DNA of 59,218 bases, taken from assembly GCA_009602735.1 (NCBI GenBank), contig WELA01002483.1, positions 165,003 through 224,220 on the forward strand, given 5' to 3'. Shown piece by piece: positions 23,982-51,440 of this stretch (position 1 is the stretch's first letter; each line of letters opens with the position of its first letter). The notes under the pieces were generated by a model that searched no databases, was not told the DNA's origin, and was given only the letters and a program-made list of their open reading frames with translations. The position numbers and the translations under genes are program-made. This DNA comes from Mesotaenium endlicherianum. Taxonomy: Eukaryota.

Positions 23982-26900
23982 CTAAAAGAATCCTCCTACG
24001 AAAGGCACACACAAGTTGAGGCCGATGTAAAGCGAGCCTGTCTGGCAGTTGAATCCGTTATTCATCGACCGAAACAGTGCTACGCTGCGGTGGAACTTGT
24101 AGTAAATAATGGAGGCACATGTGTCGCCCCTCCGAGTTGTGTAGTACTTCCGGCACGGGAGAGCAGTTTGGATGGTGCCCCCCACGCAGACCTGATGGCA
24201 GCAGCAGGGAGAGCAAATTTGAGTAAGGGTGTCATGGTGAGGAGGGTCAGAATGTCCACACAAAGAAGCAAGCAAACCTGACTATTTCTCTAGCTTCAGA
24301 CCAAGCTTACACTAAACCTACACATAACCTTGCTCCCCGCGGTGCATCCAGGACTGAAAACGGGCTGCCACTTGGAGACTCCCTGGAGCAGAGTGTTCTG
24401 AAAATCTTGCACACCACGTGAGGCATATGAGCAAATGGCACTACAAGATCACAAGAGACAACCTCCAGGGATCTTTCCCTCCCTAGACACCACTGACATG
24501 ACATTCCTCCAGCACGAGTGGGCCAGTGTCTCCTCTAGAAGATCCAAGCGACATTCCAGCACTCCCAGCTCGCAAAAGGACGTGTTGAGCCCCTTTTACA
24601 CCTCCACACGCACGCACACGCTCTCTGCCTACTCTCTGAGACGCCATCTGCACAGCTACAAAACATCCTCTGCACAGCCGATAACTTTGGACCCTAGTGA
24701 GCGAGCGTACCTCGCCGTCACCACAATGTGGAGATCACAGGACCATGCGAGACCGAGAGGCTACCAGAAACCGCAAAAAGCAACGCAGGAGCTTGTTGAG
24801 CTTGAGGTCCCAAGGGACGGTCAGCTCAACAAGCCAGCGCGTTGCGAGAAAGCAGAGCGCGAGAGCAGAACAGAGTGTGGCTGGCTGGTGGCTACACGCG
24901 GCGTGTCCGTTGACGCACCTGCTGGCCGGGCAGCGAGAGTCCCTCAGTGGGAATCAGATTGGAGCAGTAGATGCCGGGGTTCAACGCGTAGAATTGGGCA
25001 GGTGCCAGCCCGCGCTGGAGCCAGATCGACTGACAGGTGTCGTTTGCCTCCACAGGCGCGTACTCCACACACACGGGAGCTCCCAACTTCCCCGCGCCAG
25101 CTTGCACACAGACCTGCATGGGGCAAAAGGGTGCAAAGCGTACAAACATTCAGTTCCAGTCAATGTACGTACATCCGTACCTACATGCACACACTGCGAT
25201 ACACACTCGGATCAAGAGGGGCTACTCCTCCTCCAAATTGGAGCAGCTCCTGTCATCAGGCCTCAAGAGGTGGCGACGTCAAAGCCGGCAAGTACGAAGG
25301 GGGAGGTCACTGTACACCATCGTAAGCAGGCCTGTGTTGGAGTCGATCTTGCAGATGCCTGCCTGGCAAGAGGTGCGAACATGATTGTGCGCCTATGCGT
25401 CATGAGGTTCTTTCCTATCCCGTATGTGTGTGTGTGTGTGTGTGTGTGTTTGTGTGTGAATCTCTGCAATGTTGCCCCGTATATTAATGAACAGAAAGAC
25501 AAACACAAGTGCACAGAATGAGCAGGGTGAGGGGGGAAATTGATCTTCCAAGTATCGTAAGCCTTCCAGGAAGGACCCCCGGGTATGATATTGCGATCGC
25601 CATCCACGGGAAGCACGAGCAGCAGCACCCACATTGGGGCTTCTGTGTTTCAGCCCAGTCCAGACGGAGAGAATGGAGTGCATGCCAGCATAGAAGAGAC
25701 ACGACAGCAACCCCTAAGGGTGTCCAGCAGCAGGGGACAGGTTCAGCCAACAAGCCCTTCTACTTTTGACGCCGACCTTCCTTGAACCTGCCGTGGACGT
25801 AACTTGTGACGCGTCTGCCTCTGCAAAGCCTCCCCACCGGAAATGGGCTCAGCCCCCAACAAAAGCCACCAGCAGACAAGATGCAAGCGAACGAAGCTAA
25901 CCTCTTCTTCATAGCACGGTGGGACAGGAGGCACTCGCCAGCAGGGGCAGCTGTATTGTGGGCAGCTAGCTCCAGCCACGCAGAAAAATGAGGCGAGAAG
26001 CCGGAGGAAGAAGGGGAGGGGCCAGCTCGCAGGGCAGGGCAGGGCGCCCTGGAGAGAGGTGCAGACCAAGGGCGTCCAGCATGGTCAGGAAGGGAAGGGG
26101 CTCACCTGCTGCCCCGGCAGCAGCTGTGCGCAGTCCAGGCCGGGATTCAGGTCTGGCAAGAGCTCTATTGAGAACGTCGCTGCGATCGACTGACACGTGT
26201 CGCCCTGCAAGCAAGGTACGAAACGCAGGGCTCCGCTGGGGAGGGTCACATCCAGAGGGAGCACGCAGAGCCACAGCCGCGTCGGTCGCACTCAAATGCA
26301 CACTTTGCCACACAGGCTGTGCACAGCACTTTCTAAAAGACTGCATACACGCGCTGCGGGCTAGTGTCTACAGTGCCAAGAACACGTGAATTGCATGCGA
26401 GCGCGTGCGTGCGTGTGCGTGCGTGAGTGTATTCGTGTGTGATTTGGGGGGACTGAGTTCAAGCTTGCAAATGACAGGCTCTGCATTCTGGCTGCAGCAG
26501 TGCAGAGGCCAGCAGGGTGGGGGAGCGGTGCTGAGCTCACAGGCGCAACGGAGTAGGTGGCATTGCAGCCACTGGTGTCATTCCCGTTGTCCACGGCCAA
26601 AAGTACTCCCGGCGTTAGAGGAGGCGTACAATCCAGGCCCTGTCACAAGAGGGAGCAAGAGGGGGGGGGCATCAGACTGCCTGGAGTCAGCTGTCCCTGC
26701 GCCTATATGCAAGGGGGAGACGCACAGAGGGTGCAACTGATGGCTCCCGGATTTCAAGTCCTGTTCATCAAATCCACGGCATCGCGCGGGCGCAGTGGCA
26801 CTGCCACGTGGAAGCAGTGCTAGAGCTCACAGTCCCGAGGCAGAGATCCACGAACCCCAGCTGTCTGCAGATTGACGAGGATTGCCATCATCCAAAGGTG

Positions 26901-27266
26901 CAGGGAAGAGGCTTGCGCTGATTCGAGGGGAGGGGGGGAACAGACAACTCCAGAGGTGGACAGACATGCGTTCAGACATACAACACACACGTGACCCTTC
27001 CCTACTCGTACAAACCACGTGCAGGCCCCCCTGCATTTGCACACTGTCAGGAAGACGGGGTTGTGCATATGACGGAGGCGGAGGCTCCAGACAAGATGGC
27101 GCGAGGAGCCAGCTGGCAACGAGGTTGCTGGAGAGGGGCTGCCACTCACGGGATTCAGTGCCAGGAGCTGGTCCAGGGTGATGCGGAACATGGTGTGGAT
27201 GAGGTAGCAGGTGTCGTTCTTCTGCACCTCGTAGCTGCCGCTGTCCACGTAGCTCAGCGCTGAGAG

Positions 27267-27308
<42 letters not shown>

Positions 27309-30300
27309 CTCACCCGCGAGTGTGAGGACATGATATCAGCAAGCGCAGGCTCGTGCTCATGCTCATGCGCATGCACTACAGCATTTCCCAGAAAGGTGCC
27401 TCTCACGCCAAATTTTGATACTACTTTACATTCCCATGGAAAGGTTACTGGCCAGATATGCACGGACGCATGCACGCCAGAAGCAAGACATAAAATTGCG
27501 CAGCTGGTCTTTGCCCCGCCTCCGCCAGAGTCATGGCAAAGTTTGGCAACTGAAGGAACCGGGCCGCCCGCACCCTCGAGGTGAAGAGGTGTGAAGAGGG
27601 GCTGAGGGGTACGCTCACCGGTAGCACACGTGGGCTGCTGGTTCATGAGCTCTGCCACAAAATACCCGAAGGGGCAGATGCACGTGTAGCTGCCCACCCC
27701 GTCGTCGATGCAAGTCCCCGTCTGGCACGGGTTGGACGCCGCGAAGGTGCATGGCCGCGCTGCACAGCCCCGCCCCCTCCCCATATGCGCCAGGTGGCAG
27801 CAGGGGGGAGGGCCACGTGTCAATAATCTCTTGTGGGCACAGAGCTGCATGAGCAGTTGCGCGCACACCCAGCGCGGAGGACCCTCAGCCCCCCAGCACT
27901 TCTCATAGGGCCCTGCAAACCCCCTCGAGAGAGCCTAGCAGCTGAAACACTAGATGAGAATTCTGAACAGCCTGGAACTTAGCATTTCACAGATGGGATC
28001 ACACCCATCTGCAGCACGAGGAACTCGGTGGGGCTGGCAGAGTCACACTGCTGTGGCGGCAACGAGGGAAGAGGCCATAGGGCAGGGCTTGACAGGCAGG
28101 TGAAGGCGCGTGGAGACGAGGAAAGGCTGGAAGGGTGGCGCGGCACGCCACGCCCCCCCATGCTGGCACCGAGCACAGGAGGGCTCACTAGTCAGCTGGG
28201 CAAGCCACACCAGGCCCCCAGCAGGTCAGCACAGCTTACCGGGAGCGCAGGACTGGGAGCCGTCGACGTTGCTGACGGCCACGAACTGGTCGGGGCACAC
28301 GCACTCGTAGCTACTTCCCGCAGGAATGCAGGTCCCGCCCCCGCAGGGGTTGATGCCCCCGCACGGGCTGCTGGCTGCGCATCACCAGAGGAACAGAGTG
28401 AATAGGACCAGACATACGTATTATGTGGGCCTATATGTAAACGGGTGGTTTGATGTCGCGGGAGAGAGAGAGTGCTTGGGTGTGCTTGACACAATGTGAT
28501 CATTGATCTGCACGGGGGGGGAGCGGCGCAAGCGCGCGAGCACCCACCCGCGAGGACGGGGTAGGAGGCGGGCGTGGCGGCGACGCCGCAGATGCCGGGG
28601 CCGCCCGCGATGGCCAGGCGCATGTACCCGCCCTCGCCCCAGCTGGCGCCCCACGAGTTGCGGATGATGAGGTAGGGGCGTTCGGTGTCGAGCACGTAGC
28701 CCACAAGCAGCACCGCGTGGTCCACCACCTGGTTGGCGTAGCAGTCGGGGTCCTCAAACAGGCCCTGGTGGAATAGAGCAATGAGAGGGAGAGGCGGGGG
28801 CCACGTGTCAACCACTTAGCGTTTGTTGCACGTAGTGGGCACGCAACAGACCCATGCTGATGCTCCCCTCGTCGCTCTCACAAGCTCTGGGTGCACGTGC
28901 ATCAGCAGGCCTGCTCCATTCCGCCAGTAGAGCCCCCAGGGAGCAGGGCCTGCCTCTAGTGGGTGCTCCGCTGCCAACCGCCCTCGTCCGGGAGGGAGAG
29001 TTGTGGCGGCAAACGAGAGGGATGGAGGGTGGGGTCAGAGGCGATACCCCCAGGTAGTTCTTGAACGAGTCCTGGCTGCCTTCCACGTTCACAATGACGG
29101 GCTGCCTCTGCACGGCCAGCAGGAGGCCGAGCAAGCCATAGAAATCAACCTGCTCCCACAGGGTGATTCCGTACTGGCCTTGTTCCTCCTGCAGACACAC
29201 ACACACACACACACACATACACGAGACACCCAAGCGTGATAAGCAGGTCGGTCCAGTCCCGTTTGTATAGTAGGGTGTGGAGCTTCCCAAGAGGCATAGT
29301 GCGTTCATGCAAACGTATATGTCATCGCATACAAAGGCATGAATGAACATTCATATAACAAACTGCTTCTGATGATTCCAGTCGTGCAGTTGGTTTCAGT
29401 CGAACGACTGAAATGACTGCCAATTGGGAGTCGCAGTATTTCAGCCTTCCGTTTTCAACTGTCAGCCGACGCATAACTATTGACTGAAATGAATGCCGCC
29501 AATCTCCGCCACTCCCTCTTGGCTGTCGGGCGGTGTTGCAGCCAATGAGTCAGAGAGATTTGAGGCGGAGTCACAGTCGTTCACCCATGCAGGCACCTCA
29601 TTCTCTTTAGTCACGTGGCCATTTTCAGTCGCTTCTCCAATCAGTCACTCGTGAGTCCCCGTTGTGTGTGCGTCACATTTCAAGGCAAGGCAAGGCGAGG
29701 CATTATCCCACACACCAAAGCAGCACGCGACTTCAAAGAAGAAATATACACCGATATATTTGACTACACTTGTGGATCTGTGCTTTCTGGCCGCCTGCTT
29801 ACACAACAACAGATGCTTGCATCTGACACGGCAACACACACTCGCCTTATGGATGGCAAAGTACCGTCACTAGATCTCGATCCAGGGTTGGTGCACACAC
29901 ACAGACAGGCAGGCGAACCAGCTCACGACAAATGAACTCCAGGACCACCCACGTCACAAGTGCTTGTTCGTCTTACAAGATTGGCAGCACATTCAAACGG
30001 CTCGACCCCCCGGTAGGGGTACACAGCGCTGGTGGCGAGGGCCTTCCCGGCCGCCACGTAGTTGAAAGCGTCGCCCGGCCACCCCCCCTCGCACGCGCCG
30101 CTGCCCGCCTGGCAGTCCAGCACCTGCTGCTCGCTGGCCGACACCGCGCCCGCCCCCGGGTTGCTGATGGAGAACGCGCCCTCAATGGCGCCCACCGCCG
30201 CAAACGCCCAGCTGGCACCTGGCAGACGAGGCCACGCGCAGCCAGCCAGCCAGCCAGCCCAGTCAGCCAACCGAGGAGAGCACGTTTCAGGTGAAAAGGC

Positions 30301-33300
30301 CGGTCGAAAAGCTCGGTTCTCGAGATGGGAGAGACTCTACAGGATGCAACGCCTTGGCGAGGATAAGGTCAGGACCAAGCACAATGACACCAGCCAGCTC
30401 ATGACGTTCGCCACATTTGCGGACTCACGGATGCAGACCGTGCTGGCGTTAAAACAAGAGGGAGTACCAAGAAGCGGAACACAAACACACACACTCACAC
30501 GCACACGCTGACAGGGGATAGAGCACTCCCGTGAAGGAGCTCAGCCAAGCACTCGAATGGCATCAACACTCCACTCTTCGTTGCTGCACACCTACATCCT
30601 AGACCTGGTTTTAGCCGTCCCCTGTGCAAAAGCCAACACGCGCCAGGTAAAAGAACGCAGCACCTATGCGACCTCTCGGGGCTGTTCCACGTCACACAGC
30701 AGCAGCCCGTCGGAATCAGGAGGGTAGGGCTCTAGTGTGGTGTTGTAGGCCGCTCACCGCACTGCAGCTGGTCCTTGACGGGGGGCAGCACGTTCTGCTG
30801 GGACCAGTCCACGCTGCTCGCGATGCTCCAGTTCACACTGCTGCCGTCGGCGGCGCCGGTGAACCCGTAGCTGGCGTGGCGGAACCCCGGGTTGAGGTAC
30901 GGCGACGCCTTTGTCTCCTCGTGAAACACGAGGCCCGTCACGCGCGCCAGCAGCGTCTGCGGAGGGCGTGGCGGAGGGGGGGCTGCAAGGGGGCAACAGA
31001 CAGACATATTACATCATCTAAGAAGTTAATATCATTGGAGAGCAAGCGGAGTTCGAGACGACACCAAGCGGGAACAGACTCTACCTCCCCCTTGCTGGTG
31101 CAGGTGGGCCACTTGCAAGCGCTGCTCCAGACAGGAGCCTCGGGAAGGAGCGAGTTTGAGACAGGAGGGTCCTCCCAGAAGAGTGCATACCCATGTGCCC
31201 TTACGCATAGCAGCAAGCACACTTGTCATGTGGCAAGCTGCAAGGGGCGACAAATTTCTTGACGCGCAGCCATGAATTGGCCCTTAGAGGCGACGCTGGC
31301 TGCTGTAAAGATCTGCTCTTGGCAGACGGCGCACTCGTCTCTCTGACGTCAACCACTAAGGCTGCGACGAGCGACTGCAGCACCGCACCGCCAGCCTCAC
31401 CAAGACCAACCTCACGAGTTGCAAAGGGAGCGTGGAGACGCCAAATCCTCTGCCAGACTGGATCCAAAACTGCAGATGCCTGGCAGCACACAGCACCCGC
31501 CTCTATGCACTCTGCTAATAGAGGAGGGACAGCCCGAGGGTTGGAGCGCGGGCACCCTACCAGGAATTTCCGTGCAGGAGTTGACTTGCGGCCCTATAGT
31601 GAAGCCGGCGAAGCAGAGGCAGGTGGGCGTGGTGCCGTTGAGGTAGCACTCGCCGCCCGCCTGGTACTCGCTGCCCATCCCGCAGATGGTGTAGGTGTCG
31701 GCCCCGCAGAAGGCCGCGCACTCCGCCTTTGTGCGCTGGCGGGTGGTGGGGCACGAGCCGCGGTCCGTGAAGCAGTTGTCGGCCACGCAGGACTTGGAGC
31801 CGCCGGGGTATCGTATGTACGGTGCGCCGCTCATGTAGTTGTCGCTTGCACGGACGACAACTGTCTCCGTCTGAACGATCGGCAGATCGCCCGCCAGCTG
31901 GTTCGACGATACATCTCTGACAGGTACACGCACAAAACCAAGCACATACCCAGGCGGGCTCACCCAGACACACACACACACACACACACACACATGTGTA
32001 AGTAACAGCTTACTAACAAGGCCTGGCCAGCGTGCCGGTTCTGTTGCTTCTTGAAGCAAAGGGCGCACAAAGGGACTGACACCACTCAAGTCGTGATTGC
32101 TTCCTCTAAGTTTTGGAGCATGCACACATGGCGCCTTCACATGCAAAGCCCAGAGCGCACGAGAGTGAGCAAGATCTGTCCAGACTTGCCGGAGCAAGTC
32201 ATCGCAGACCAATGAACCCAGCCACCGGAAGCAGCGTGAGGCCAGAAGTCGACAACGCAGCCGGGAGGCTGACATGCCAACCCTCGCACAGCGCCCACAG
32301 CAGTGCTGCAGCCCGTAGCTGCGCCGACACGCAGCGGCCCTCAAGACTAGGTCTGCATCCATGGCAGACGTTTTGTACGCTTGGAGACGGAGCAGGGACG
32401 AAGCTGAATAAGTGCCGTGCTGCCAACATCAGAGAACGTACGCTCCATGCTCCTCTCGACACCCGATACGTCGGCCGACTACGTCGCAGCGGTGGGCAGG
32501 GTGCGGGAGGAGGACAGGCAGCTTGCTCACTCACAGAAGTTTCAGGCGGGTCAAAGTCTTCATGCAGTAAGGCAGGATGCCGTAGAACCGGTTGCGCTGC
32601 AGCTGCCTGCAACCCCCCCAGCCCCGGGGCACTCAGCGTCACATATGCCAGATGGGGGAGCCAGCACCTGGACTTGGCAGTCAGCAATTTTCCGAACAAG
32701 CAGTCACCATATCACACCCAGCAGCCTTCAAACCGCGCGCTACGGTTGATGAACACCAGAAGCACGTCGCGCGCCTGCGCGCCATACGGCCTGCATGATT
32801 TTCGAGACGCAGTGGCTCTGCTCCGTCCAGCCGGACACAGTATGTGCGCAACCCTTAGACTTGGGGGCCGTATGCATCGTGAGCCCACTGTCAGCGGTGG
32901 GCTCCTCTTGGTTCCCGCTGGAATCACGCACGCCGACATGGATCAAGGGACGCGATGGAGTGCCAGGAGCTGAACAACGAGGAGGGAGGAGAAGACTGTG
33001 GAGAAACGAGCGATGCAGATGCAACCAGACGGGCTGCGGTGCTCGCTCTTACAGGGTGGTGATTCTGGCGAGTCTGCACAGACCATCGGGGATGTGGCCC
33101 GTCAGCCTGTTGCTCTGCAGGTGCCTGCACCACCACCCCCACCGGTCACCGTCGCACGTGTTAGAAAATCTCCCCTCCTCGAGCCTCAAATCCCACTTGC
33201 TTCTGGCGCTGGCGTTGGCCCCGACGCCGTGAGCGAGGCCCAGAGCTTCAGAGGCGCCGATGCCAGCAGGGAGCCCGGCCGAGTCTCCTGCGACCAGAGG

Positions 33301-35998
33301 GCCAATATATGCTGTAGAAAGACTTCAGAACCACTGCACTTGCACTCCATATCTGCAGCCACAGGCACCCTCCAGCTGGCGTCCCCGCACAGCTGGCGGG
33401 TGCACAATCGTGTCCAGCCCTCCCCCTCTCAAAGCCAGACTCTATATCCCAAAGAATAGGCCCATCTTGGGGGGGGGGCATTCATCCAGCCTCCGTATCT
33501 CCGGGGTGTCCCAGCACTTACGGCACATGCGACAGGGGACTCACGAGACATAGCTGCCAGGTCAAGCAGGTGAGGGGGGCCAGAGCCTTGGCTGCAGGCA
33601 GCTTAAGATGGGGTTGGGACTGCTGCCACGTGGCGCTGTGTCTTTGAGAGCAAGCCCGCCAACTGGACAGCATCTTTCATCTGACAACCGGTGCATGCGC
33701 TGACTGCCAGCAAACATCCGGCTCCAAATTTCTACGTGGACACAGAGGGGGAGGGAGGGGGCGTGGCGCCTCTCACAGCTGGGTGAGGCGGGTGAGGTTG
33801 CCGAGGCACTCGGGGATGCCGCCCGTGAGCTGATTCTGCGCCAGCTCCCTGCCGCCCCCGCCCCTCTCCCCCCGCCCGGAGCTGCTATCAGCCACCCTCA
33901 TGGCTGCTTTCAACTCGGTTCACTCGGAGGCGAGTGCACGAATGTAAGGTATCACCAGCAGCCGCTCAGGCACTGCTCCCTGGCTGCACTAGGGTTCATA
34001 GAGTCGGCAGCGCATCCAACGTCAGGGTGCATGTAGTGAAGGCACCACTTGCAGGGCCAAGTGGAGGGCGGGCTGCCGGCCATTACAGGAAGGTAAGTGC
34101 TCTGATGCGGCATACTTCTGGCGGGATGCTGCCACCCAGCTTCGTCTTGCTCAGCCGCCTGCGCCCGCACATGAACCCCCGCATGGCACCCGGCTCCATC
34201 ACTCCTGCTAAGCACGCGTACACACGTTCAGAGGCATGGGCTCAACTGCAAGCGGGGGCGCGCGTGTGCGCGCGCAGGATGGCGTCATGTGTGGACATCC
34301 GCAAAGACGTGTGCAAGAACGTGGTGCTACTTCTTGTGGCCCTACATTGACCTACACGAGGTGGTCATGGTTTTGCACGGAACAGATACGGGAGTATCAC
34401 AAACTTCTCGAGCGTACGCAACACTTGCTCCCCTCAGGCAGCCTCCAGTCCATCCACGTCAGAGACATTCGGCTGGCTATGCTGCTGAGTATGAAGGCAC
34501 ACTTGCTTCTCTCACGAGGAGGAACACGGAACTGGAGGTAGTGGAAAAGCATAGGGAGAGGAGTGATCAAAACCTGAAGCCTGCAGTGCGATTCTGCTGT
34601 GCCCTGTCTGATATCAAGAGACCCCACGGGGCACAGACAAGAGCGGCAAAGCGTCTGACTCCTTTCTCCTCCAACGTGCACGGGTCTCTGCTGCATGCAT
34701 GACGCGGGACAGCCACCTAGGAGAGTGCATACAGCAGAGTGAGTGTGACGGCTCTTTTGCAAGTGCCAAGTGGCACGTAGCAGCATCTCCATCATCAATT
34801 TGAACGGTAGCGCTGCCTGCAAGCAATGTGTCCGAAACTTACAACAGCGCCAGGCTCTGCAGGAGCTGGACGGCAGGCCCTAGGGTCCCGCGCAGTCCCC
34901 GGCCCACCACGTCGCTGCCATCCATTCATCGCAGCAGCAGCGCAGCAACGTCATCCAAAAGCGTCAGAATTCGGATTTGATTGAAAAATTCAAAGGGGCC
35001 ATCAGAAATGCTCCATGGGCCTGTGCCTTCCTGCCCCCTGCCAGGATCTCTGGCATGGCTCAGCAGAAATCCGATCCCTTCTTAAGTGCTAGCTCCTACT
35101 TCATCATGTACTCTGCCTGGGGAAGCTTCTACTCTCACCTACAGCAGCACCAGGTGAAGCTACTTGGAAGGACAAGGCGTAGGACAAAGCTGACTATGTG
35201 GCTAGGGCGGCTGAGCGCACACGGCCACACATACATGGCAGTGACATGGCCGGCCTTGTTGCAGCGGACACCGGAGTACTTGCCGCAGTAGGCTCCCTTC
35301 CACGTGGCAGTTGGCCCCGAGCTCAGAAAGTCAACCCGCAAGCTCTGCAGCGCAGCCCCTGACATAGCCAGAGAAACAAGAAAACCCTTATGGCTGAGGC
35401 GTAGAGATGTAGGGTACAGTCATGCATGAGATAGCTGCAAACTGACCTACTCCATGCTATCAAAGCCAGGAATACCTTGTATAACTGAAAAAAAGGGGGA
35501 CCATCAATACAGTACTTCCACATTGTCGCTTGTACAAGTCTCTTGACTAGGTTGCCATGTCCCGTCTGACACGACCAGTGCTCCCTTATTATTCAAATAC
35601 AAGATGGTGAGACAACCCCTATTGCTCAGCTGCACGCGTATGCCGTCGTCAAATCTCCAACTGCGGAGTAAGAGAAACAGCCAATATCCAATGATATTCT
35701 TGCGAGAACCTGAAATCTATTTCTTCTCGCATAGCTTAATAAATAAGAGGCTTCTTGTTTTGACAGAGTCAAGATTGGCAATCATACAGCTGCAAGTCTT
35801 AAGGTCAATGTGTCACCAAAGATCAGGGGAGATTAAAGCCATCACAATTTCCTGTGCAAAAGGTTTTCAGACGAAGTGCTGAAGTCCTACAAGCGAGCAT
35901 GGGAGTGAAAACGCACCGTCAGTTTTGTGAATCAATATAGCCGAAACATGCGTAAGGTAGAATATCAGCAGAAGCATTGCTGGAAAAAGCCGCCCCAT
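23982..35998 (-). CDS. Secreted mosaic protein, copy A (~911 aa): signal peptide, LRRNT + LRRs, EGF, Pro hinge, papain-like C1A domain (catalytic Cys->Ser), 2 EGF, 4 LysM. 19 exons (5'->3'): 35917-35998, 35235-35358, 34843-34914, 34087-34158, 33777-33848, 33053-33124, 32535-32606, 31561-31916, 30758-30982, 29977-30218, 29048-29188, 28548-28764, 28240-28374, 27619-27759, 27150-27259, 26541-26639, 26106-26204, 24919-25113, 23982-24191
   Basis: Signal peptide MGRLFPAMLLLIFYLTHVSA; LRR cap WKGAYCGKYSGVRCNKAGHV; plant LRRs such as LELAQNQLTGGIPECLGNLTRLTQL; C1A motifs VDWS..LPPVKDQLQC|GASWAFA, SEQQVLDC, CEGGWP, DHAVLLVGY, IIRNSWGASWGEGGYMRL, GICG; EGFs NPCGGGTC..YECVCP and NPCQTGTC..YTCICP; LysMs such as YSVAPGDTCQSIA..LNPGLDCAQLLPGQQVCV. 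All introns are GT-AG, phases are continuous (2736 nt), and every exon has a counterpart in copy B. Confidence 0.9.
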
Positions 35999-38841: not shown

Positions 38842-40094
38842 TTACGGCAGACACACATTGAGGCCGATGTACAGCGAGCCTGTCCGGCAGTTGACCCCGT
38901 TATTTAACGACCGAAAGAGTGCCACGTTGCGGTTGAACCTATGGTAAATGACGGAGGCACACGTGTCGCCCCTGTGGATTGTATAATACTTGCGGCATGT
39001 GGCGGCGCCTTGTTGGACAAACCCCCCCAGGCAGACCTGATGGCGGCAGCAGCAGAAAGGGCAGATGTCAGCGACGGCATCAGGGTCTAAAGAGTCAGGA
39101 CGTCCGTGCGCACGAAAAAAAATCTCGTCAAAATTTCATGCTTCATGCGTCCATAGCCCTGCTCCTGCGGTGCATTTACCGGGTGCCAATCGGCTGTTCA
39201 TTGATGAGCTCAGTGGAGCAAAAACACATGCCCTCTCCTGAGCCCCTCTCGAGGGTGGTCTCTAAGGGGCTCTCCAAACTGTCACAGGCGCGAGTTGTTA
39301 AATCAAAACGGAAAGACAAGATTGCAAGAGACCAATCTCCACGGGTCTTTGTCGTACGCGGCAACTACAAGGTGGAACTCCATCCCACATTGGTAGACCA
39401 CTGTGGACTCCATAGTGCCCGAGGGGCATGTCACCGCTGCAAGTATGCAAAGCAGACGCGTTCAGTCCTTTCCGGACACCCATATGCGCACACACGCTAT
39501 GCCTCCACTCTCGAGTGCCAATAGCACAGCGACAGCATTCTGGGACAGGCATTTGTCGGACAGTGCAATTAGTGACCCTGGGCCATAGCACGCAAGCATT
39601 TTCCGCCGGCACTGCGCAGGGAGGTCACCAGCCAGAGGACACCTGCTGGGCTACAGAAACCGCAGGGAGCAGCACAGGAGCTTGTCAAGCTCAAGGTCTT
39701 TGAAGCGAGCGAGCTCTCGTCAGTCACCGCCGGCGTTGCAAACGAGTAGAGCGCAAGAGTCAGAACGCGTGTGGGCTGGAGAGTGCATGTATGTGCTTGC
39801 GGCGTGTGTGTCGACGTACCTGCTGGCCGGGCAGCGAGAGTCCCTTGGTGGGAATCAGATTGGAGCAGTAGATGCCGGGGTTTAAATAGTAGAATCGTGC
39901 AGGTCCCAGCCTGTACTGGGTCCAGATTGACTGACAGGTATCGCCGGCCTCCACTGCCATGTAGTCCACACACTCGGGAGCTTCCAACATCCTATCGCCA
40001 GCTTGCACACAGATCTGCAGTCACACATTGAGGGCAACACATAGAAACATTCAGCTCCAGTCGGCATACGCACACCCATATATCACCCATACAG

Positions 40095-40147
<53 letters not shown>

Positions 40148-41222
40148 CTTGAACTAAAAGGAGCAGCTCCTTGGAACTGGAGCAGCTAATGGCTTGGAGA
40201 AGCCGGCACATCGGCAGGTACCATGTCGTCACACACTGCAAGCAAAAGGAAGTGCTTACTGCACATCTCAACAACCATGCCAGTGTTTAGGTCACTCGGG
40301 CCTCCTCCTGTTCAGCAGACAGTACAAATATATGTGTGCCTTTTCATGTCACAAGGTTCTTCTCTATGCCACATGTGTGTGTGTATCTGCATGCATATAT
40401 CTTTGCGTGTGCTGCATGTAGTTTGGACACAAGTACACGCGTGTGCGCAAGGAATAAGCAGGGTACGAGGCAAGCTTGCTCTTCCAGCCACAGCATCCTT
40501 CTCGAAAGGTGCACTAGCACATCAGAAGTTACACTACGACCACGAGCAGCAGCAGTGCTTCTCACGACGTGCCGCACTTCAGCGCAATCGTCTGCCCTCT
40601 GAAAGCTTCTCCGTCCCAGATGGGCTCGCCCCAGCAACAGAAGACCTCCAACAGAAGAAACCGCACGAGTTACCACCAGAATGAGCTACCCTGGCCCTCA
40701 GAGAACATCATGGCAACGTGACAGAGAGACAGGTGCTTTCCAGCAGGAGCAGCTGTAATGTCGGGCAGCTAGCTCCAGCCACACAGAACATGAGGCGACA
40801 GGGCACTGACTTGGTTTCAGAGGAGGGGAGAGAGGGGCCAGCTGGCGGTGAAGAACACCTTGGGAGAGGGAGTGGAGCTGAGGGCGCTATGCAAAGGAAG
40901 GAGGGGCTCACCTGCTGCCCCGGTTGTAACTGCTGGCAGTTGAGGCCGGGATTCAGCTCCAAGAGCTCCACATTGTCAAACACCCCGGCGATTGACCGAC
41001 ACGTGTCGCCCTGCAAGCAACGCACACCACCCGCGATTTCGTAGGGCAAAGTCACACCCGGAGGGAGAAGGCACAGCCGCGGCCGCATAGCTTAGACGCG
41101 CCCATCACCAAATTGGCTCCGGACGGTACTTTCTGGAAGACCACATGCAGCTCGCCAGTGCGGGCTCATGCCTCTACGGATTGCGAGCGCGCGTGCACAT
41201 GCACACGCGCCCACGCGCGTGT

Positions 41223-41254
<32 letters not shown>

Positions 41255-43329
41255 ACCTCGTGGCACTGCATCTAGCTTGCCATGGAGCCTTGCTCTCTAA
41301 GTTTCATGATTCAAAGGCCAGGGTAGTGCTGAGCTCACAGGCGCAACGGAGTAGGTGACGCCGCAGCCCTCACTGTTGTTCCTGTAGACCACCGCCAGGA
41401 CGACTCCTGGCGTCGGATGGGGCGTGCACCTCAGGTTCTGTCACAGAAGAATGGGAGAGCATGAAGCTGACTGAAACCAGCTGTCCTTGTGCCTACGAGA
41501 GGAAGAGGCAAGCCTGCGCAATTGATAGCTTCTAGATCTGAATGCTCGTTAATCAGAACCACTGCAGTGCGGAGGCTCTGTTGCGAGTATGGGAACGTGA
41601 AAGTGCTGCGACAGCGTCAATCTCGCGGCAGAGACTGCAGTCCCCATCTGTTTGCAGATTGACAGAGATGGAGAGCATTATCCAGACGCAGACATCATTG
41701 AGCACCGAGAGAAACTGGTGGGCGGAGACAGAATGCGTGAGAACTGGACAGTCAGGCATACAGAGATGTGCGCCAAAAATCAGAGTCCCTGAACACACGT
41801 GCATGTGCAGCAGCCCCCACGTCTGCACAATGTCGGGGCGTCGCAGTCAAGCTTAGAGCGGCGGCGGAGTCTTCAGACACAGTGGTGCGACATGCCAGCT
41901 GGCAACGAGGGTGCGGCGGGGGTGGCACTCACGGGATTCAAGCTCAGGAGCTGGTCCAGGGTGATGCGGAACATGGTGTGGATGAGGTAGCACGTGTCGT
42001 TCTTCTGCACCTTGTAGGTGCCGCTGTCAACGTAGCCCGGGTCTGCAGGAGGCGGCACGCACACACACGCAAAACGCACACACACGCACGCGCGCGTGCG
42101 CGCGCGCCCGTCTGGATGCTTGAGAACAAAGCGTCAGCAGGCGCATGCTCGTGCGCCACAACCCGGGCCACATGCAATGACATGCCGCATCGCAGCTCCA
42201 GCTTGCGCCCAGTCAGGCAGCACAGCAGGGGCACTTGCACGGCTTTTCCACTGTTGCGCATCTCACGAACAAACTCTCTGCTTCTCATTCTGCCCCCTTC
42301 GGGACGGGTCTCTGGCCAAGGGCACGACAAACACATGCACACAAGAAAGGCCAGAGATCGACGAACCGCTGCTCGCTGGCCCGCCTGCACCGCCTCGTGG
42401 CAGATGTACGCGATGAAGAACCCAAATCCGACCACGCCCCTAACGTCTTGTACTCCAGACAGAGGTCGGGTGGTGCGAGCGAGGGGTGGAGGGCCGCACT
42501 CACAGGTGGCACACGTCGGCTGCAGGTTCAAGAGCTGCGTAACAAAATACCCAAAGGGGCAGATGCACGTGTAGCTGCCCCGCCCGTCGTCAATGCACGT
42601 CCCCACCTTGCACGGGTTGAACGTCGAGAAGGTGCACGGCCGCGCTGCACATACCCGCCCACCACGTACGTGCCAGGTGGCAGCAACGGTTAGAGGGTCA
42701 CATGTGACCAGAGAGCAGCATAAGCGATTGCTGGTGTCGGCGCGCCCAACGCTGAGGACCCTCAGTAGGCTCAGACAGTGAATCAAACGTCAGACAAACA
42801 ATACGCAGAGGCTGGATGATCACGTATAGCACGTTCACTCACATCTACACGCCGCACCAGGAGCCGATTGGCGGCGCTGGAGTCAGAGGTCAGCGGCGAC
42901 ACAAAGCGAGGGGTAACAGGGCAGGCCTGACTTCCCGTAAGGAGCACCGAAAAGTGCAATGGCAGGGGAACTGGCGCGTCAGACCACACCTTCCGGTGCA
43001 GGTACCAAGCATGGGGGGGCTTAACAAATTAAGCCGGGCCAAGCGACGTCAGGCCCCCAGCAGGTGAGGTCGCACGCTTCACAGGGCTGACGTCAGCACA
43101 GCTTACCAGGAGCGCAGGACTGGGAGCCGTCGACGTTGCTGACGGCCACGAACTGGTCGGGGCACATGCACTCGTAGCTACTTCCCGCAGGAATGCAGGT
43201 CCCGCCCCCGCAGGGGTTGATGCCCCCGCACGGGCTGCTGGCTGCACACCACCAGAAGAATGGAGCAAATAGGACCAGACATACGTATGTGGGCCTATAT
43301 GTAAATGCGTGGTTTGATGTCGCGGGAGA

Positions 43330-43380
<51 letters not shown>

Positions 43381-46300
43381 TNGCGAGCACCGACCCGCGA
43401 GGACGGGGTAGGAGGCGGGCGTGGCGGCGACGCCACAGATGCCGGGGCCGCCCGCGATGGCCAGGCGCATGTACCCGCCCTCGCCCCAGCTGGCGCCCCA
43501 CGAGTTGCGGATGATGAGGTAGGGGCGCGGCGTGTTGAGCACGTAGCCCACAAGCAGCACCGCGTGGTCCACCATCTCGTCGGCATAGCACCCGGGGTCC
43601 GCAAACAGGCCCTGGCGGGAGACACCAAGGCGAGAGTGAGAGAGAGTGTGAGTGGTAAAGAGAGTGAACGGGAAGGGCGGGGGAGGGACAGACAGAGAGA
43701 GGCAGAGGGAGGTGGGATAGGGCGCAGACGACTCACTCCTTTGTAATTCACGAACGAGTCCTGGCTGCCTTCCACGTGGACTACAACAGGCTGCCGCTGC
43801 ACTGCCAGCAGGAGACCGAACCAGCCGTAGAAGTCGACCTGCTCCCACTGGGCAATCCCGTACTTGCCCAGCTTCTCCTGCAGGCACACGCAAGCTATCC
43901 AAGTGTGAACACCAAATGTTTAAGATCACTTTCATTGGGTTGGTAAGCTTCCCATAAGTGAAGACTTGCGTGCAGACAGACATGCACATGCCATGAGTAG
44001 ACACACGTACCGGGGCAGATGTGTACATTCACGCCAGAGCAGCACACAAGGATATAAAGAATAATGCAGTTATGCTCCGTTTGCAACTACTTATGTTTGT
44101 TCAAGTCATGCACTAAGTTTTAGGGGAGGTTTAATCACTGGCATTCAGATGTTTCAGGCGTTCAACAAAGCGACTCATGAAATCCACTCCAAATTTCAGT
44201 CAATAAATAAATGTGACTGAACGACTGTCGTGCATGCCATCACTTTCAGCTGTTACTTCACGCGTGTTGCTGTCGTAAATGCAGGCATTCAGTAATGCAG
44301 ACGGTCCAGTCATGACTGCCTATACAACCAACGCAATTGTTCTACAATCGTTCATTCACTAACGCCAAACAGTCGGTTTCGACCACTCCTCCAGACCTGT
44401 CTCAGAAGTCCTTATTGTTCATCTCACGCCAACTTCTTCAAGCAGGCAAAGGCATAATTGCTCTCATCAAATTAGCACACACAGCTCAAAAAGATCAGAG
44501 CGACATCTATTTGCCTTTATTCACGGACATGCGAATGTATGTTACTCTACTCCACTGCAACCTATGTTTGCATCGGCATTGCTTTCAAAAGTTGCAACAC
44601 ACCGTTGCTGCATCTCCACGACATGCAAAGATATGTACGCATGCACACATAGACAGGCAGCCAGGCAAAAACTGCATCCCAGAAACAAACTGCGAGACCA
44701 CGCATATCACACGTCCTTCTTTCTCTTACTTTGTCGGCCGCACATTTGGACAGCTCGGTCCCCCGGTAGGGGTAGGCGGCGCTCGTGGTGAGGCCTTTCC
44801 CGCCCGCCGCATAATCAAACGCTTCGCCCGGCCACCCCCCCGCGCACGCGCCGCTGCCCGCCTGGCAGTCCAGCACCTGCTGCTCGCTGGCCGACACCGC
44901 GCCCGCCCCCGGGTTGGTGATGGAGAACGCGCTCTCGATGGCGCCCACCGCCGCAAACGCCCAGCTGGCACCTGGCAGAGGTGGCATACCCAGCAAGCCA
45001 AGGTCAGCATGGTCCAGGCTGAGAAGACGGGGATGAAATAACGCCACACGAGATCACAGTGGCATTCTAGGACGCGGAGAAAGTCGGTCTAGTACACTGG
45101 CACCAGCCAGCTCCTGATGTTTGCCGCACGCGCGCAAACACGCATGCAGAGCGTATAGTATCTACATGTATATAAAAGTTGTAGAAAAATACATGGAGGG
45201 GCCACAAGAATTACACACACACAAACACACAGACACACACACACAGGCGTGCACGAGCAGTCAGGAGGCAAATGCACTTCCGCTGATGGAGCACGGGCCA
45301 AGGATACGTGGAAGGCCTGATAAACGACACGTGGTTGCTGCTCTGATCGCAGAAGCATGAGGACCCGCCCAGCTTGAGGCCCCACCCGAGACCTCAGGCC
45401 CTCCGCCCGCCCCCCCCCCCAAGCCCAGCACGTCCCTACAGCAACAAAAGTAGCTCTCCTGAGCAAACCCTCCAATCATGGTAGGTGCTCTGCGTCACAC
45501 AGGTGTCGCATTTGTAGCGTGCCAGATACAGGAGCTCAGGCTCATGGCTCTGCAGTTTGGGCCAGGGGCCAATGATCGGGAACTGGGCCAAGTCTGGGCC
45601 AGGGTGTGTGCGCAAGTTCCAGTGGGGGGCCTTACCGCAGCGCAGCTGGTCCTTGACGGGGGGCAGCACGGCCTTGCCCTTTGGCTGGCGCCAGTCCACG
45701 CTGCTCTGGATGCTCCAGTCCACACCGCTGCTGTTGGTGCCGCCCGAGAACCCGTAGCTGGCGTGGCGGAACCCCGGGTTGAAGTGGCGTGAGGGCGCAG
45801 CCTCTTCAGGAAACACGAGGCCTGTCACGTGCTGCAGCAGCGCGGGGGGGGCTTGCGGCGGAGGGGGGGCTGCAGGGCCACAAACAAGCAAAGACAAACA
45901 ACCCAAGTACTATGTGTGTGTGTGTGTGTGATTATTGTACGAGGGAACCGGAGAGGCGGATGATAGGACGGCGCAAGAAGGAGCCGCGCCGCCCTTATCG
46001 GTGCAGGTGGTGCACACGCAAACGCTGCTCAAGATAAGAGCCCAAGGGAGGAGCGGATGTGAGACAAGAGGGTCCTCCCAGGAGGGTGGTCCTCCCACAG
46101 GAGCGCATCTTGATTGCCCCAACACCTGGCATCAAGCAGCGGAACCCCTAGAGCCCTCAACTCTCGCCATGTGGCAAAATTTACAGGGCTTCCCAGAGTG
46201 CAAGGTATCGATCCCTTCTGTGCCTTCATAAATTTGCGCAGAGGGGTGGCGCTGGCTGCTATGAATATCTGCTCTTTTGACCGGCTGCGCACTCGTTTCT

Positions 46301-49300
46301 CTCATGCCTAAGAATGATGCTGCGGTGGACGACTTCTTTCCTGCGACACCACCATCGCTCACCAAGCCGAGCTCACAAACTGTGCAACATAGAGTGCGAG
46401 AAGCCGCGCCCAGAGCATGACCAAATATAAAGTGACACCCTCCTCTGTGCCTCCACTCAGAGGAAAGAAAACTGATTTGGAGCAAGGGATTCCCCAGAAG
46501 CACAAGCCCACGAAGAAGTGCCCACCAGTAATTTCCATGCAGGAGTTGACTTGCGGTCCTATAGTGAAGCCGGCGAAGCAGAGGCAGGTGGGCGTGGTGC
46601 TGTTGAGGTAGCACTCGCCGCCCGACTGGTTCTCACTGCCCGTCCCGCAGATGGAGTAGGTGTCGGCCCCACAGAAGGCCGCGCACGCCGCCGTCGTGCG
46701 CTGGCGGGTGGCGGGGCACGAGCCGCGGTTTGTGAAGCAGTTGTCGGAAGCGCATGCGATGGACCCGTTAAGAAACTCCACATGGGCGCTGCCTATCAGG
46801 TAGTTTTTGTCTGCGCGGACGACACCTGTCCGCGTCTGGAAGCGTGGGAACTCGCCCGTCAACTGGTTCGACGAGAAGTCCCTGACACACACAGGAGACA
46901 CATGCGCGCACATGTGCACAGGCACACAGGGGACGCATCACACACAGAGACACAGACAATCCACATAAGGAACACGTGGGCACACACAAGAACGCGTGTG
47001 AGCGATAACCACATCGACAAAGACAAGTCATGGCAAGCGTGCGAGTCCTCCTCTCTTCTGACAGTAGGATCAGGGCCATCGAGATGCACACGAGTGGACT
47101 GACCCTTCACAGAATGCAACCTCTTCCTTCAAGTACCGAAGCTCCTGAAGGTGGTGCCGTCCCACGCGAAGCCGAGCACGACCTTGCCGGAACAAGAGGA
47201 GAGGATCAGAGGGGCCAAACTCTGGCAGCGTCAGTCCCCTCCTTCCACCAGACCGGGAGTCAACAACACAGCCCAGACACCGATGCCTCGGTCCTAGCAC
47301 ACTTCTCACGGCAGCTCCGCAGCATGCAGCCACGCTGGCAAGCAGCAAGCCTTTAAGGGGGGGGGCTGAGCCCCCGGCACACGGTACCCGCTCCGCGCAA
47401 GGTGCGGCGAGAGACGGCCCAAAAAACAAAGCTGCATGACGGTGCCGTTCTACCAGCACCAGAGGCTTCAGAAAGCGTGTGCTCCTCGTGTTCCTCGTAA
47501 GGCAACACGCTGCCCAACTGGAAGATGTGACGGGAGGCAGGGTGCGGGCGGGGAATAGGCAGCTAGCTCGCTCACTCACAGTAGTCTCAGGCGATCCAAG
47601 CTCCCCACGCAGAAAGGGAAGCTTCCATAAAACAGGTTTCCCTGCAGCTGCCTGCCCCCCCCCCCCGCCCCCCCCGCCAAACAAAACGCGCACACACACA
47701 CACACAGACATATAACGTTACATCATGCTAGATGACAACGCCTCAGGTATAGAGGCAGCATCTAAAGAAGCAGTGGCGTACGCAGGATGTGCCCAGCACT
47801 GAACATCAGCAGAAGGAGAGGCCGCATGGAGGGGACCCTAGGAGATATTAAATAGCTGTGGACCCGGAACGGCAACCCATGCGGACGTCCAGGTTCCAGG
47901 TGGGCAGTGGTGCCGCTTCTTACAGGCTGGTAATTCTGACGAGTTTGCACAGTTCAGTGCGGATGTGGCCGGTCAGCTGGTTCTTCTGCAGGTGCCTGCA
48001 TCAAACACCCCCCCGCCCCCCACCCTCCCCAACAAAAAACCCAATGCCGGACATGTTCAGACCCCTTCTGCAGCCTTAGGACGCACTGGCTCTTGAATCT
48101 GACGCCTGACGCGCTGACCCAGCTCCGGAGCTTCAGCGGCGCCAATGCAAGCAAGCACTCTGGCCGCCTTTCCGGCGAGTAGGAGGCAAACAAGTAGCAG
48201 TCAGAAGAAGCAAGAGAGGACTGCGCCCAAACCCACACCCACATCCACCGTCTCCCCTCAGCTGCCGGCACCGCCTCTGAGTGAGCCCCTCCACTTCACC
48301 AAACCCCTAAACCCTCGACTCTACGACTGAAGGAGTAGGCCCATCTCCAGGGGCAGGCAGATGGGCCCGACGCGTGGCATTAATCCAGCCCCGGATTTCG
48401 CACATGGCAGGCACTTGAACATATTTGAAGCACGCACATGATGGGTTGTGAGATAGACAGAGCTGGTAGGTTCAGCCAGTGAGGGGTCTCGAGCGTCAGC
48501 TTCAAGACAGCCTAATGTGGTTGAAGAGGCTGCCACTTGGCCTTTGTCTCCAATTCTTGACAGTCAAACCCCCGGCGCAATCTAATGCGTAATGAATAAG
48601 CCTGTCGTGAAGAGCGTTGCACTTGCCCCTTCACCTCTTCATTGCCCCCGCGGGTGACGCAATAAGGCCCCTTAGCCAAGGGACGGGCGAAGATGAGAGC
48701 CGCGGCGGATAGACATATGGGGAGGAAGCACGCAAAAACCCTGGCGGGGTTTGGGCTTGGACGAAGGTGGAGAGGGAGAGGAGACACCTATCTCAGATGC
48801 ACTCCAAGAAGGCACTCATTTTCTTGTCCCAGAAACTAATGAAGGGGCCGCAGGCTGGCCCCAAACTTACGCAGGGGAACAACTCGTCCAAGAAGTCACG
48901 ACACTCGGTGCACACAAACATGTCCCAAACCCCCTTGCCGTACCTAGCGCCACCATATGCAAAAACACAACGTCGACCGGAAGTCGCATGCGTTCAAAGG
49001 AGGAGGGGGGGTGAAAACCCTGCCATCCCTACAGTACAGTTCCTGGTGCTCTGGTGCACTTGACAGCGAGCCCGCCCACTTGGCCACTGCATGTGCAGAG
49101 AGGGGGAGGAAGAGTGCTGGGCCTCACAGCTGGGTGAGGTGGGTGAGGTTGCCCAGACACTCGGGGATGCCGCCTGTGAGCTGATTCTGCGCCAGCTCCC
49201 TGCCGCCCCCGCCCTCCCCACCCCGTTTGAAAATGCTGTCAGGATACCAGCTACTTCGAGCCCCTTTCAATATGAGGCTGCTATAGGCTTTTGAGGTCTC

Positions 49301-51440
49301 TGGCAGAGCGTACGAGTAAGAGTTGCTGGAAGTTGACTAAACACTGCCACACATCGCGCGTTGCACCAATCGTTCGGCAAGCTGAGCTAGTATACTCTCA
49401 TCCTGCAAGTCTCCTCACACCCCTGTTGACGAGTCCGTTGGCAAGGGCACCTGAGAGCATCCTGGAGCGCTGATGCGGGCCATCTGTGGCTGTCAGTCCC
49501 TCGCACTGCGCATGCAGCCTCTCATGCTTGGAGCCCGGTCATACAGATGCACTCGGGGCCTCTATAAGATAGTTATATGTTTTGTGTCTCAAGTTGGAGT
49601 GGGGGAATCTTAGACGACAGACTGCAAGTACTCAAGTACTCAGGGTCTCTTGTTGGGCAAGGTTTATGCGGTAGGAGCTGCTGGGCATTTACAGGGAGGT
49701 GAGTGCGCTGAGGCGGCATATTCCTGGGGGTATGCTTCCTCTCAGCTTCGCCTTGCTCAATTGCCTGCAAAACACGCATGACCCCAAAGACACCAGGCCC
49801 CATCAGACGCCCCTCTCCCTAACAAATACGCATGTCAACACACGCTCAAGTGCTTGCAAACGGGCGCGCGCACATACGCGCCCACACAGATACACACAGA
49901 CACACACACGCGCTACATCATTTGGATGCACACGCGTGGCCTTGACCAAGAAAGCCATGCGTGTGTTTGTAGGCACAGACGCGCCTACACATGGTGCTTA
50001 TGGTCTTGTATGTCCACAGTCTGGAGTGCCGCAACTTCTCGTGTGCGAGATACACCCCCTCTGGTCCACATTCAGAGCCCTTCTGCGAGCTACCCTACTG
50101 CACTAGAGAACAGGCTATGCTTCTTGCGTGGGCGGATACAGCCTCGATGAAATCATAGGGGAACTGTGAGGCAAGGAGTCATGTCAACGCAAAGCTCGAA
50201 ATGTGAACAATCGAACAATGGCCTGCCTCGTGCGAGGCGCTCTGAGGCATAACATCTAGGGTTCACAGAAGATGTCCGACCCCCTCCTATGATGTGTGTG
50301 ATGTTTTGCTTGAGAGGGAAGGGACAGCTCTAGGGAGAGGACTGCCAGTGAAAGTGACGGTTAGTCTCTGAGTGCGAAATGGGATGCAGCAGCATGTCCA
50401 CCCCTCACGCTAAAGTGTTTAATGGTGAGTGTAAGCGGCACGTCCAAACTCACAGCAGCGTCAGGCTGCGCAGGAACTCGATGGCGGGGGAGATGGTCCC
50501 GCGCAGTCCTTGGCCCACCACATCGCTGCCCCCAATGCATCGTGCACGCAGTGTCATCATTGAGTGAGAATGATTAAGAAATTTTGAGAAGGCATCAAGA
50601 TTCAGGTGCAGGGGGCGTCAGACATGTCCAAGCACCAGATGCATGTTGCTGTCAGGTAAAGGAGTGGGAGAAAGCTCAGAAAGTTTGACGCTTCTTCGGG
50701 CACATGCCCACACATACATGGTGACAACATGACCGGCCTTGTTGCAGCGAACACCGGAGTACTTGCCGCAGTAAGCTCCCTTCCATGTGACAGTTGGCCC
50801 TGAGTTGTTGAAGTCATGCCGCAAGCGCTGTAGCGCAGCCACTGACATCCCAAGGAAAACAAATATTTCAGGCTCAGTTGTAGAAATGTATGGTATGCTT
50901 CTACATGATTTCAATACATATATATATACATATATACATATATATGTATATATGTATATAAATATATATTTATAAATGCATACATTGACCTGATGCATGC
51001 CCACAAACACATGACTACCCTATGAAGCTGGAGAGCTAGGGGCTTCATGGCTAACTCTTCATTCAACAACAAGATGGTGAAATATTCAACTCCCTCAAGT
51101 GTTCGGCTTCACAAGTGCACTTCTTTCACCTACTGAGAAACGAGGTCATTAAACACTGTCGCTAACGAATTAATTTCAGTACCTAGTCGCGACTTTTTCT
51201 TTCACAAAAGCACAATACAGCTGACTCGGGGACTGACAAACCTAAAAGCAGCTATTGCAGGGAGCTGCCAGTGTGAGTTTGCGGTTCCACCCAAAGTGAC
51301 CGAACAATACTACTCAGAGGAAGTGGTGCTATCAAAGAGAGTGGGTCTGAAAACGCACGGTCGGTTTTGTGAAGCAAAACAGCAGAAGCATATGCCACGT
51401 GGAAAATTAGCAGAAGAACTGCTGAAAATGGTTGCACCAT
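38842..51440 (-). CDS. Secreted mosaic protein, copy B (~909 aa), tandem paralog of copy A with the same architecture. 19 exons (5'->3'): 51359-51440, 50718-50841, 50454-50525, 49693-49764, 49128-49199, 47924-47995, 47580-47651, 46526-46881, 45636-45869, 44730-44971, 43737-43877, 43395-43611, 43107-43241, 42504-42644, 41933-42042, 41339-41437, 40912-41010, 39820-40014, 38842-39036
   Basis: Signal peptide MVQPFSAVLLLIFHVAYASA. Exon sizes are identical to copy A except exon 9 (+9 nt) and the last exon (-15 nt). C1A motifs VKDQLRC|GASWAFA, DHAVLLVGY, IIRNSWG. No in-frame stops found (2730 nt). Confidence 0.9.

Follow-up and report, generated by a model that had tools for sequence, protein, structure and literature searches.

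Gene structure of the tandem pair

The 59,218-nucleotide stretch analysed here (henceforth the window; positions 165,003 to 224,220 of contig WELA01002483.1, assembly GCA_009602735.1) comes from Mesotaenium endlicherianum, a green alga closely related to land plants, and carries on its minus strand a tandem pair of genes, copies A and B, whose products place leucine-rich repeats (LRRs), EGF-like modules, a papain fold and LysM domains in a single chain. An earlier sequence-only reading had proposed that 19 small exons in each case give an intact protein of about 910 residues. Splicing by coordinates bears this out, with stop-free frames of 911 residues for copy A (coding span 35998-23982) and 909 residues for copy B (51440-38842), GT-AG introns throughout and intron phases identical between the copies; the span ends are those given by that reading. 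Self-comparison of the window shows the duplication as exon-sized similarity blocks between 23.7-36.0 kb and 38.5-51.4 kb. The two proteins are 75% identical (681 of 904 aligned residues), each retains 48 cysteines, and their synonymous divergence is about 0.3. A simple counting estimate, computed without six exon-17 codons of copy B, puts the ratio of non-synonymous to synonymous divergence (dN/dS) at about 0.48 overall and at 0.37-0.65 by region.

With exon 10 as query, four proteins bearing source names of the type jgi/Mesen1 were retrieved, a code which we take to denote M. endlicherianum. One of these, P0001 (901 residues), represents copy A among the public gene models and lacks 10 residues at the exon 14/15 junction; another, P0002 (529 residues), represents copy B there and begins only at exon 10. 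The frames described here correct both the shortened copy B and the ten missing residues of copy A.

The divergence between the copies is uneven. Exons 12 and 13, together with the intervening intron (28225-28793 versus 43092-43642), are far more alike than the remainder, with 99% nucleotide identity in exon 13 and differences at 2 of 52 four-fold sites across exons 12-13, and this near-identical tract suggests a recent gene conversion. LRR exon 5 is 94% identical between the copies, and the assembly has one N at 43382. A 297-base repeat lies inverted on either side of copy A (22687-22983 and 37271-37562; 90% identity) and is possibly a small mobile element. An intronic stretch (31089-31185, corresponding to 45992-46088) is 78% conserved between the copies; as a candidate extra exon it was ruled out, since in either copy the reading frame runs on directly from exon 8 into exon 9, and copy-A reads skip over the stretch.

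Transcription and splicing

The RNA data on copy A comprised raw reads from three studies (four runs) and one contig set. At least 15 of its 18 predicted joints occur in RNA reads, and all 15 listed joints coincide with predicted introns; the joint linking the first EGF-like module to the papain fold (30982/31561) is supported by 21+22 reads in run X9 and by 22 in X12. At the exon 9/10 joint loose-end reads carry the end of exon 9, and the exon 10/11 and 14/15 joints are backed by the lengths of RNA contig records. A 1381-base RNA contig holds exons 18, 17, 14 and 13 of copy A at offsets that require a 110-base exon 15 and not the shorter public version, and to judge from the lengths it has room for exons 12, 11 and 10. 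Transcribed untranslated stretches adjoin the coding span of copy A on its 3' side (23619-23981, from an RNA contig record and read depth) and its 5' side (35999-36268, from an RNA contig record). The first mates of the stranded run X12 all map to the plus strand, as expected for minus-strand RNA. For copy B at least 14 of the 18 joints are listed in RNA reads, one listed row being a cross-mapping artefact. Neither gene is covered end to end by any single read or contig.

Read numbers per million letters for copy A vary about 20-fold across runs (55 reads in 1036 million letters, 1645 in 1388 and 737 in 1225), and copy B yielded fewer reads than copy A in both runs compared (543 against 1645, and 372 against 737). 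Division of the LRR, protease and LysM parts among separate genes, an outcome that would overturn the sequence-only reading, is rejected for copy A by its RNA joints; for copy B, where these joints do not exclude it directly, it is unlikely, and a fused gene is likely.

Domain architecture

The modules proposed by the sequence-only reading were recovered in both copies by local profiles, in the order LRR-EGF-papain-EGF2-LysM4. In P0001 Pfam reports Peptidase_C1 (E 1.1e-49), LysM, LRR and EGF, and a Pfam LysM match was obtained in each of the four LysM-bearing copy-A exons tested. Exon 1 (35917-35998 in copy A, with its equivalent at 51359-51440 in copy B; this and all following coding features lie on the minus strand) encodes a signal-peptide-like stretch at residues 4-26, the sole hydrophobic 19-mer stretch in a hydropathy scan, which is not a trained predictor. 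By the same scan neither copy has a transmembrane (TM) segment beyond this stretch, and no kinase domain is found by Pfam in P0001 or P0002; a secreted protein lacking both, as had been surmised, is thus consistent with these data.

The LRR part consists of an N-cap and six 24-residue units of the plant type. The N-cap (exon 2) and five units, each on its own 72-base exon, occupy 32535-35358 in copy A and 47580-50841 in copy B; exon 8 (31561-31916 and 46526-46881) adds the last LRR, a Cys-rich cap and the first EGF-like module. The best sequence matches of the LRRs are the ectodomains of FLS2, GSO1 and MIK2, whereas the N-cap has a weak LRRNT_2 match (E 0.022) and the first EGF a weak Pfam match (E 0.18 on copy B). 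Exon 9 (30758-30982 and 45636-45869) contributes a Pro-rich hinge, a putative propeptide remnant and the start of the mature papain fold, which continues through exons 10-12 (28548-30218 and 43395-44971). Two further EGF modules follow, one on each of exons 13 and 14 (27619-28374 and 42504-43241), and exons 15-19 (23982-27259 and 38842-42042) encode four Cys-flanked LysM domains. A profile built from eight LysM exon pieces has its best PDB matches in the LysMs of Chitinase A (5bum and 4pxv; E 1e-11 and 3e-9), reaches receptor LysMs at E 0.04-0.5 only, and also matches the bacterial structures 4uz2, 4xcm and 8i2e. These LysMs are therefore likely to be chitin-binding domains of the Cys-flanked chitinase type. 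An ESM Atlas search with the whole protein gave no usable match.

A serine at the nucleophile position of the papain fold

The sequence-only reading, though correct on the domains, missed three features: a serine in place of the catalytic cysteine, the absence of the I29 prodomain, and a large family of relatives. At the position of papain Cys25 both copies have the serine codon AGC, encoding Ser385 in copy A (30211-30213) and Ser388 in copy B (44964-44966). The oxyanion Gln19, His159 and Asn175 are retained, as Gln379, His526 (codon 28717-28719) and Asn546 (codon 28657-28659) in copy A and likewise in copy B. On this pattern of residues the two copies are likely to be pseudo-proteases. No alternative letter is listed in RNA reads at the Ser385 codon, and restoration of the cysteine by alternative splicing or editing was accordingly rejected for copy A. 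Cys-type reads at 44965 were considered for copy B and set aside as paralog reads because their sequence upstream differs; reads of Cys-bearing paralogs show as loose ends on copy B.

An AlphaFold2 model based on a 107-row alignment has a mean pLDDT of 85.5 (single-sequence folding, at pLDDT 35, was discarded), and superimposes on mature papain 1cqd with a VIA Z of 32.1 and an rmsd of 1.5 Å over 214 residues, so the papain fold is predicted to be intact. No Pfam match to the I29 inhibitor prodomain was found in P0001 or exon 9, and a PDB sequence search gave no propeptide match for exon 9. Nonetheless, four proenzyme chains align with 245-247 model residues, versus about 214 for mature chains, and one of them spans model residues 313-582. 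The exon-9 remnant is conserved at Gly324, at an F-R-x-A-S motif and at W359, with Gly324 invariant in the 85 of the 107 alignment rows that are filled there. About 30 exon-9 residues are hence predicted to form a retained propeptide tail following the zymogen path along the active-site cleft, with the proviso that the predictor may have copied zymogen shapes.

The wider family

Residues 215-680 as query retrieved 184 proteins of 495-1577 residues, paralogs being counted from protein records only. Among the 120 of these that were listed, 108 come from eight Closterium strains, nine from Mesen1 and two from Logan, and one is a transcriptome open reading frame (ORF) of Netrium digitus. A papain-EGF-LysM core was present in 113 of the 121 proteins profiled; 64 of these 113 also have LRRs, and 60 have the LRR and first EGF together with the core (44 with Cys, 14 with Ser and 2 unclear). 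The N-terminal module varies across the family and may be an LRR part of variable repeat number, an L-lectin domain, which in many Closterium members is inserted ahead of the papain fold, or hevein together with a weak I29. This last combination is seen in the Netrium digitus ORF, which has three hevein domains and an I29 match below the cut-off (E 1e-4) instead. The Pfam lists of the 120 relatives contain no kinase, and the models of three relatives show paired C-terminal hydrophobic stretches.

A second sweep, in which a profile was run against 1.84 billion representatives, yielded 125 new proteins within its best 150. An organism look-up covered 25 proteins (20 from this second set and five earlier ones) and named the organism for 12: Spirogloea for three, Netrium for two, Closterium for four and Mesen1 for three. 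Every named member thus comes from Mesotaenium, Closterium, Netrium or Spirogloea. Closterium and Netrium belong to the class Zygnematophyceae; all named members are zygnematophyte, and the family may be restricted to the class. A Spirogloea member has the LRR-papain-EGF-LysM form with a Cys nucleophile, and because the LRR form is already present there its origin probably lies early in the history of the class. The pair is not unique but forms a single Ser-type branch within this large family of algal proteins. Four LRR-less members (P0152, P0153, P0154 and P0121) carry an R-R/K-x-L motif ahead of a conserved R/S-L-G-L remnant; the motif resembles subtilase processing sites and may mark how the family is matured.

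Recurrent exchange between cysteine and serine

In the first set of 124 papain units the triad is C/H/N in 80, S/H/N in 35 and otherwise composed in nine. A quick IQ-TREE tree of 114 of these units (ten duplicate, short or uncalled units being left out) requires at least 10 Cys/Ser changes, 7 of them forced by starred branches. In a larger set an EGF module follows 195 of 265 papain units, and in these 195 the nucleophile is Cys in 121, Ser in 47, a gap in 26 and Gly in one. A FastTree tree of 166 of the 195 units with 12 outgroup units, the nucleophile column being set to be dropped, requires 15 changes at minimum, 11 of them forced by starred branches; these trees do not fix which way each change went. 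Copies A and B form a single Ser clade (support 100), and their nearest relatives in both trees are mostly Cys-bearing Mesen1 paralogs (support 96 and 95), an arrangement implying that the serine predates the A/B duplication.

Serine accounts for two of the seven amino-acid-changing single-base neighbours of a Cys codon. That the substitutions are nevertheless almost exclusively to serine makes random decay unlikely and indicates, at the sequence level, that the nucleophile site stays constrained, a constraint compatible with binding, catalysis or folding alike. His is kept in 45 of the 47 Ser units, including one old Ser clade of 12 rows, and the oxyanion Gln is replaced by Glu in six Ser units. 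P0005, P0017, P0021, P0024 and P0028, which form an old Ser-type clade, combine Gln to Glu with retained His and Asn and are the best candidates for a new catalytic chemistry.

Other features of the window

A CHX-type cation/H+ antiporter gene with Na_H_Exchanger and CHX17 domains lies at 4241-9030 on the plus strand and is interrupted by an assembly gap (6676-7286). It is followed on the minus strand by a multi-exon gene at about 10500-21500, three translated pieces of which have no Pfam match; we presume from its resemblance that it encodes the exocyst subunit SEC8, a name that is unconfirmed. Beyond copy B, 52394-59218 (minus strand) is a Ty3/gypsy-type retrotransposon pol with reverse transcriptase, RNase H, integrase and chromo domains, accompanied by a broken inverted copy of such a pol at 52593-53888 and a 581-residue ORF (54720-56465) without a Pfam match. 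A SWIM zinc-finger-like fragment at 255-1505 on the minus strand (E 0.004, below the cut-off) is possibly a remnant of a Mutator-type transposase.

Functional interpretation

Apoplastic papain-like proteases are known targets of pathogen inhibitors. Against this background we propose, giving it roughly an even chance, that the pair are secreted, chitin-anchored, non-cutting decoys or traps that work with Cys-bearing siblings in defence. The proteins would enter the secretory path and arrive at the wall or mucilage, where their four LysMs would dock onto the chitin or peptidoglycan of microbes. Cys-type siblings, for which protease activity is predicted, would work at that site as tethered enzymes, and the Ser-type pair would engage the same inhibitors or substrates but leave them uncut, the LRRs providing an additional protein-binding surface. 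The soluble mosaic envisaged by the sequence-only reading survives in this scheme as regards its docking-compatible LysMs and its lack of a TM segment or kinase, but its protease fold is likely to be dead.

Several observations point towards such decoys. Serine replaces Cys25 while Gln19, His159, Asn175 and the fold are kept; the nearest relatives are Cys-bearing paralogs of the same species, and the Cys/Ser change recurs; and dN/dS between the copies is about 0.48. Anchoring on microbial walls is suggested by the Chitinase A-like LysMs and by the nature of the other swapped modules, L-lectin and hevein, which are likewise sugar-binding. C25S cathepsins serve as an inactive form of these enzymes, and precedents for binding without cutting are available in their PDB complexes with peptide or effector (7q8g, 5ja7) and in SERA5 of Plasmodium, a Ser-type papain fold described in PMC4671257 as essential yet non-enzymatic.

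A number of considerations weigh against this proposal. No induction, ligand or localisation support links the pair to microbes, and a signal peptide is compatible with a vacuolar as well as a wall destination. The retained His and Asn would equally fit a Ser-His-Asn enzyme, serine may simply be the only residue that the fold tolerates at the nucleophile position, and a propeptide remnant that stays in the cleft may keep it from trapping anything. The dN/dS value signifies only moderate constraint and is distorted by the near-identical tract. The FastTree tree carries long-branch warnings and its outgroup is not one clade, and reversion, gene conversion or faulty gene models could account for some of the Cys/Ser changes. 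Lastly, the RNA joints listed for copy B do not include the four between LRR exon 6 and papain exon 10, though these exons do show read depth.

The foremost alternative, which we consider possible but clearly less probable than the decoy proposal, is a structural, adhesion or mating component of the wall or mucilage, in which the LysMs would hold the alga's own GlcNAc glycans, the LRRs and EGFs would contact partner proteins, and the papain fold, being dead, would serve as a scaffold. LRR-EGF mosaics are indeed typical of adhesion proteins, the family has been named only in conjugating algae, and reads occur in all four raw-read RNA runs, from three studies with no known microbial challenge. 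The Penium secretome, according to PMC6027541, contains an LRR extensin-like protein and cysteine proteases, which are not shown to be of this family. This alternative has to contend with LysMs that match those of chitinases best and with a Netrium member that adds three hevein domains; the expansions, variable LRR numbers and repeated switches between enzyme and pseudo-enzyme would, moreover, look conflict-driven.

Less probable still is a Ser-His-Asn triad that is catalytic as in silicateins, making the pair a polysaccharide-tethered Ser-nucleophile hydrolase, acyl-transferase or mineralising enzyme. The retention of His across almost all Ser units and in the old 12-row clade, and the Gln to Glu replacement in six units, would suit an enzyme, and the C-G-A-S-W motif resembles that of silicateins. 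The Ala before the nucleophile, however, is already found in Cys-bearing paralogs (C-G-A-C-W), so that the likeness is best regarded as convergent. A Ser-rich cluster just before the catalytic His is a hallmark of silicateins, and none occurs in the 25 residues preceding it in the pair; SERA5, furthermore, holds the fold with a serine and is not an enzyme. The idea that the pair are superfluous copies, in drift since they lost catalysis and serving no purpose, is very improbable. The moderate dN/dS (0.37-0.65 by region), the many paralogs and the fewer reads of copy B would suit it, but each copy retains an intact frame across its 19 exons, with synonymous divergence at about 0.3; both copies also keep 48 Cys and are spliced, and the serine is older than the duplication.

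The decoy proposal could be extended to the family as a whole, in a form that we regard as speculative and rather unlikely. The algal sister group of land plants would run a soluble recognition system free of kinases. Its papain-EGF2-LysM part would hold the protein on microbial walls, while an exchangeable sensor (LRR, L-lectin or hevein), taking the place of the inhibitory prodomain, would control the propeptide tail such that a bound ligand switches the protease on; the Ser copies would be recurrent decoys against pathogen inhibitors. If true, this would amount to an extracellular arms race of sensor-proteases and decoys, with no counterpart described in land plants.

Full-text searches, with subscription papers outside their coverage, found no description of this architecture. 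The main text of PMC10505561 contains none of the terms LysM, papain, cysteine prote-, peptidase or chitin. The main text of PMC11096116 counts 209 domain combinations found in Zygnematophyceae alone, along with 26 Lectin_legB architectures, and mentions neither papain nor LysM; its supplementary tables may list the combination. We therefore regard the proteins as a modular variant of C1A peptidases that is real and expressed, seems not to have been described before, and is represented here in a pseudo-enzyme form. In this family LRR, LysM, L-lectin and hevein, the principal recognition modules of plants, surround a papain fold within a single soluble chain that exists in many copies. The natural matched sets of Cys- and Ser-types, in a cultured alga with RNA data, make the decoy idea for apoplastic proteases testable outside land plants.

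Relationship to known systems

With C1A papain-like proteases such as actinidin, triticain and the RD21-type enzymes the pair shares the fold, the Gln, His and Asn residues, a signal peptide and perhaps, as the model predicts, a propeptide tail. It differs from them in having Ser for Cys25, no I29, an LRR-EGF part in front and EGF2-LysM4 behind, and it lacks the granulin tail of land-plant C1A enzymes (8zlq).

Ser-type papain-fold proteins other than SERA5 include silicateins and testin. All of them have in common with the pair a serine at the nucleophile position of an intact papain fold, and the Ser-His-Asn triad of silicateins is likewise present. The pair is distinguished by its independent origin among Cys-bearing algal paralogs, within which it nests in trees computed without silicatein, by its LysM, LRR and EGF modules, and by a change that is recurrent within one family.

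The plant LRR and LysM receptors and their ectodomain-only counterparts offer plant-type 24-residue extracellular LRRs with an N-cap, and LysMs, to which relatives of the pair add L-lectin. Unlike these receptors, the pair has neither TM segment nor kinase, its modules flank a papain fold in a soluble chain, and its LysMs resemble those of chitinases far more than receptor LysMs (E 1e-11 versus 0.04-0.5). Ectodomain-only LRR and LysM proteins are treated in general in PMC10834447, and, since relatives add L-lectin to LRR and LysM, the family unites several of the ectodomain classes covered in that survey.

A wound- and pheromone-induced cysteine protease of Volvox is reported to join an extracellular papain-type domain to chitin-binding repeats, without LRR, EGF or LysM, and to have been proposed for defence. 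The pair would resemble it in this general design, and the Netrium member has hevein repeats. Finally, bacterial wall endopeptidases (4uz2, 4xcm and 8i2e), whose catalytic domain we take to be of the NlpC/P60 type, likewise rely on LysM repeats to attach a papain-like fold to a polymer of GlcNAc. They belong to another peptidase family, cut peptidoglycan and were matched through their LysMs only, and their resemblance to the algal pair is one of convergent design.

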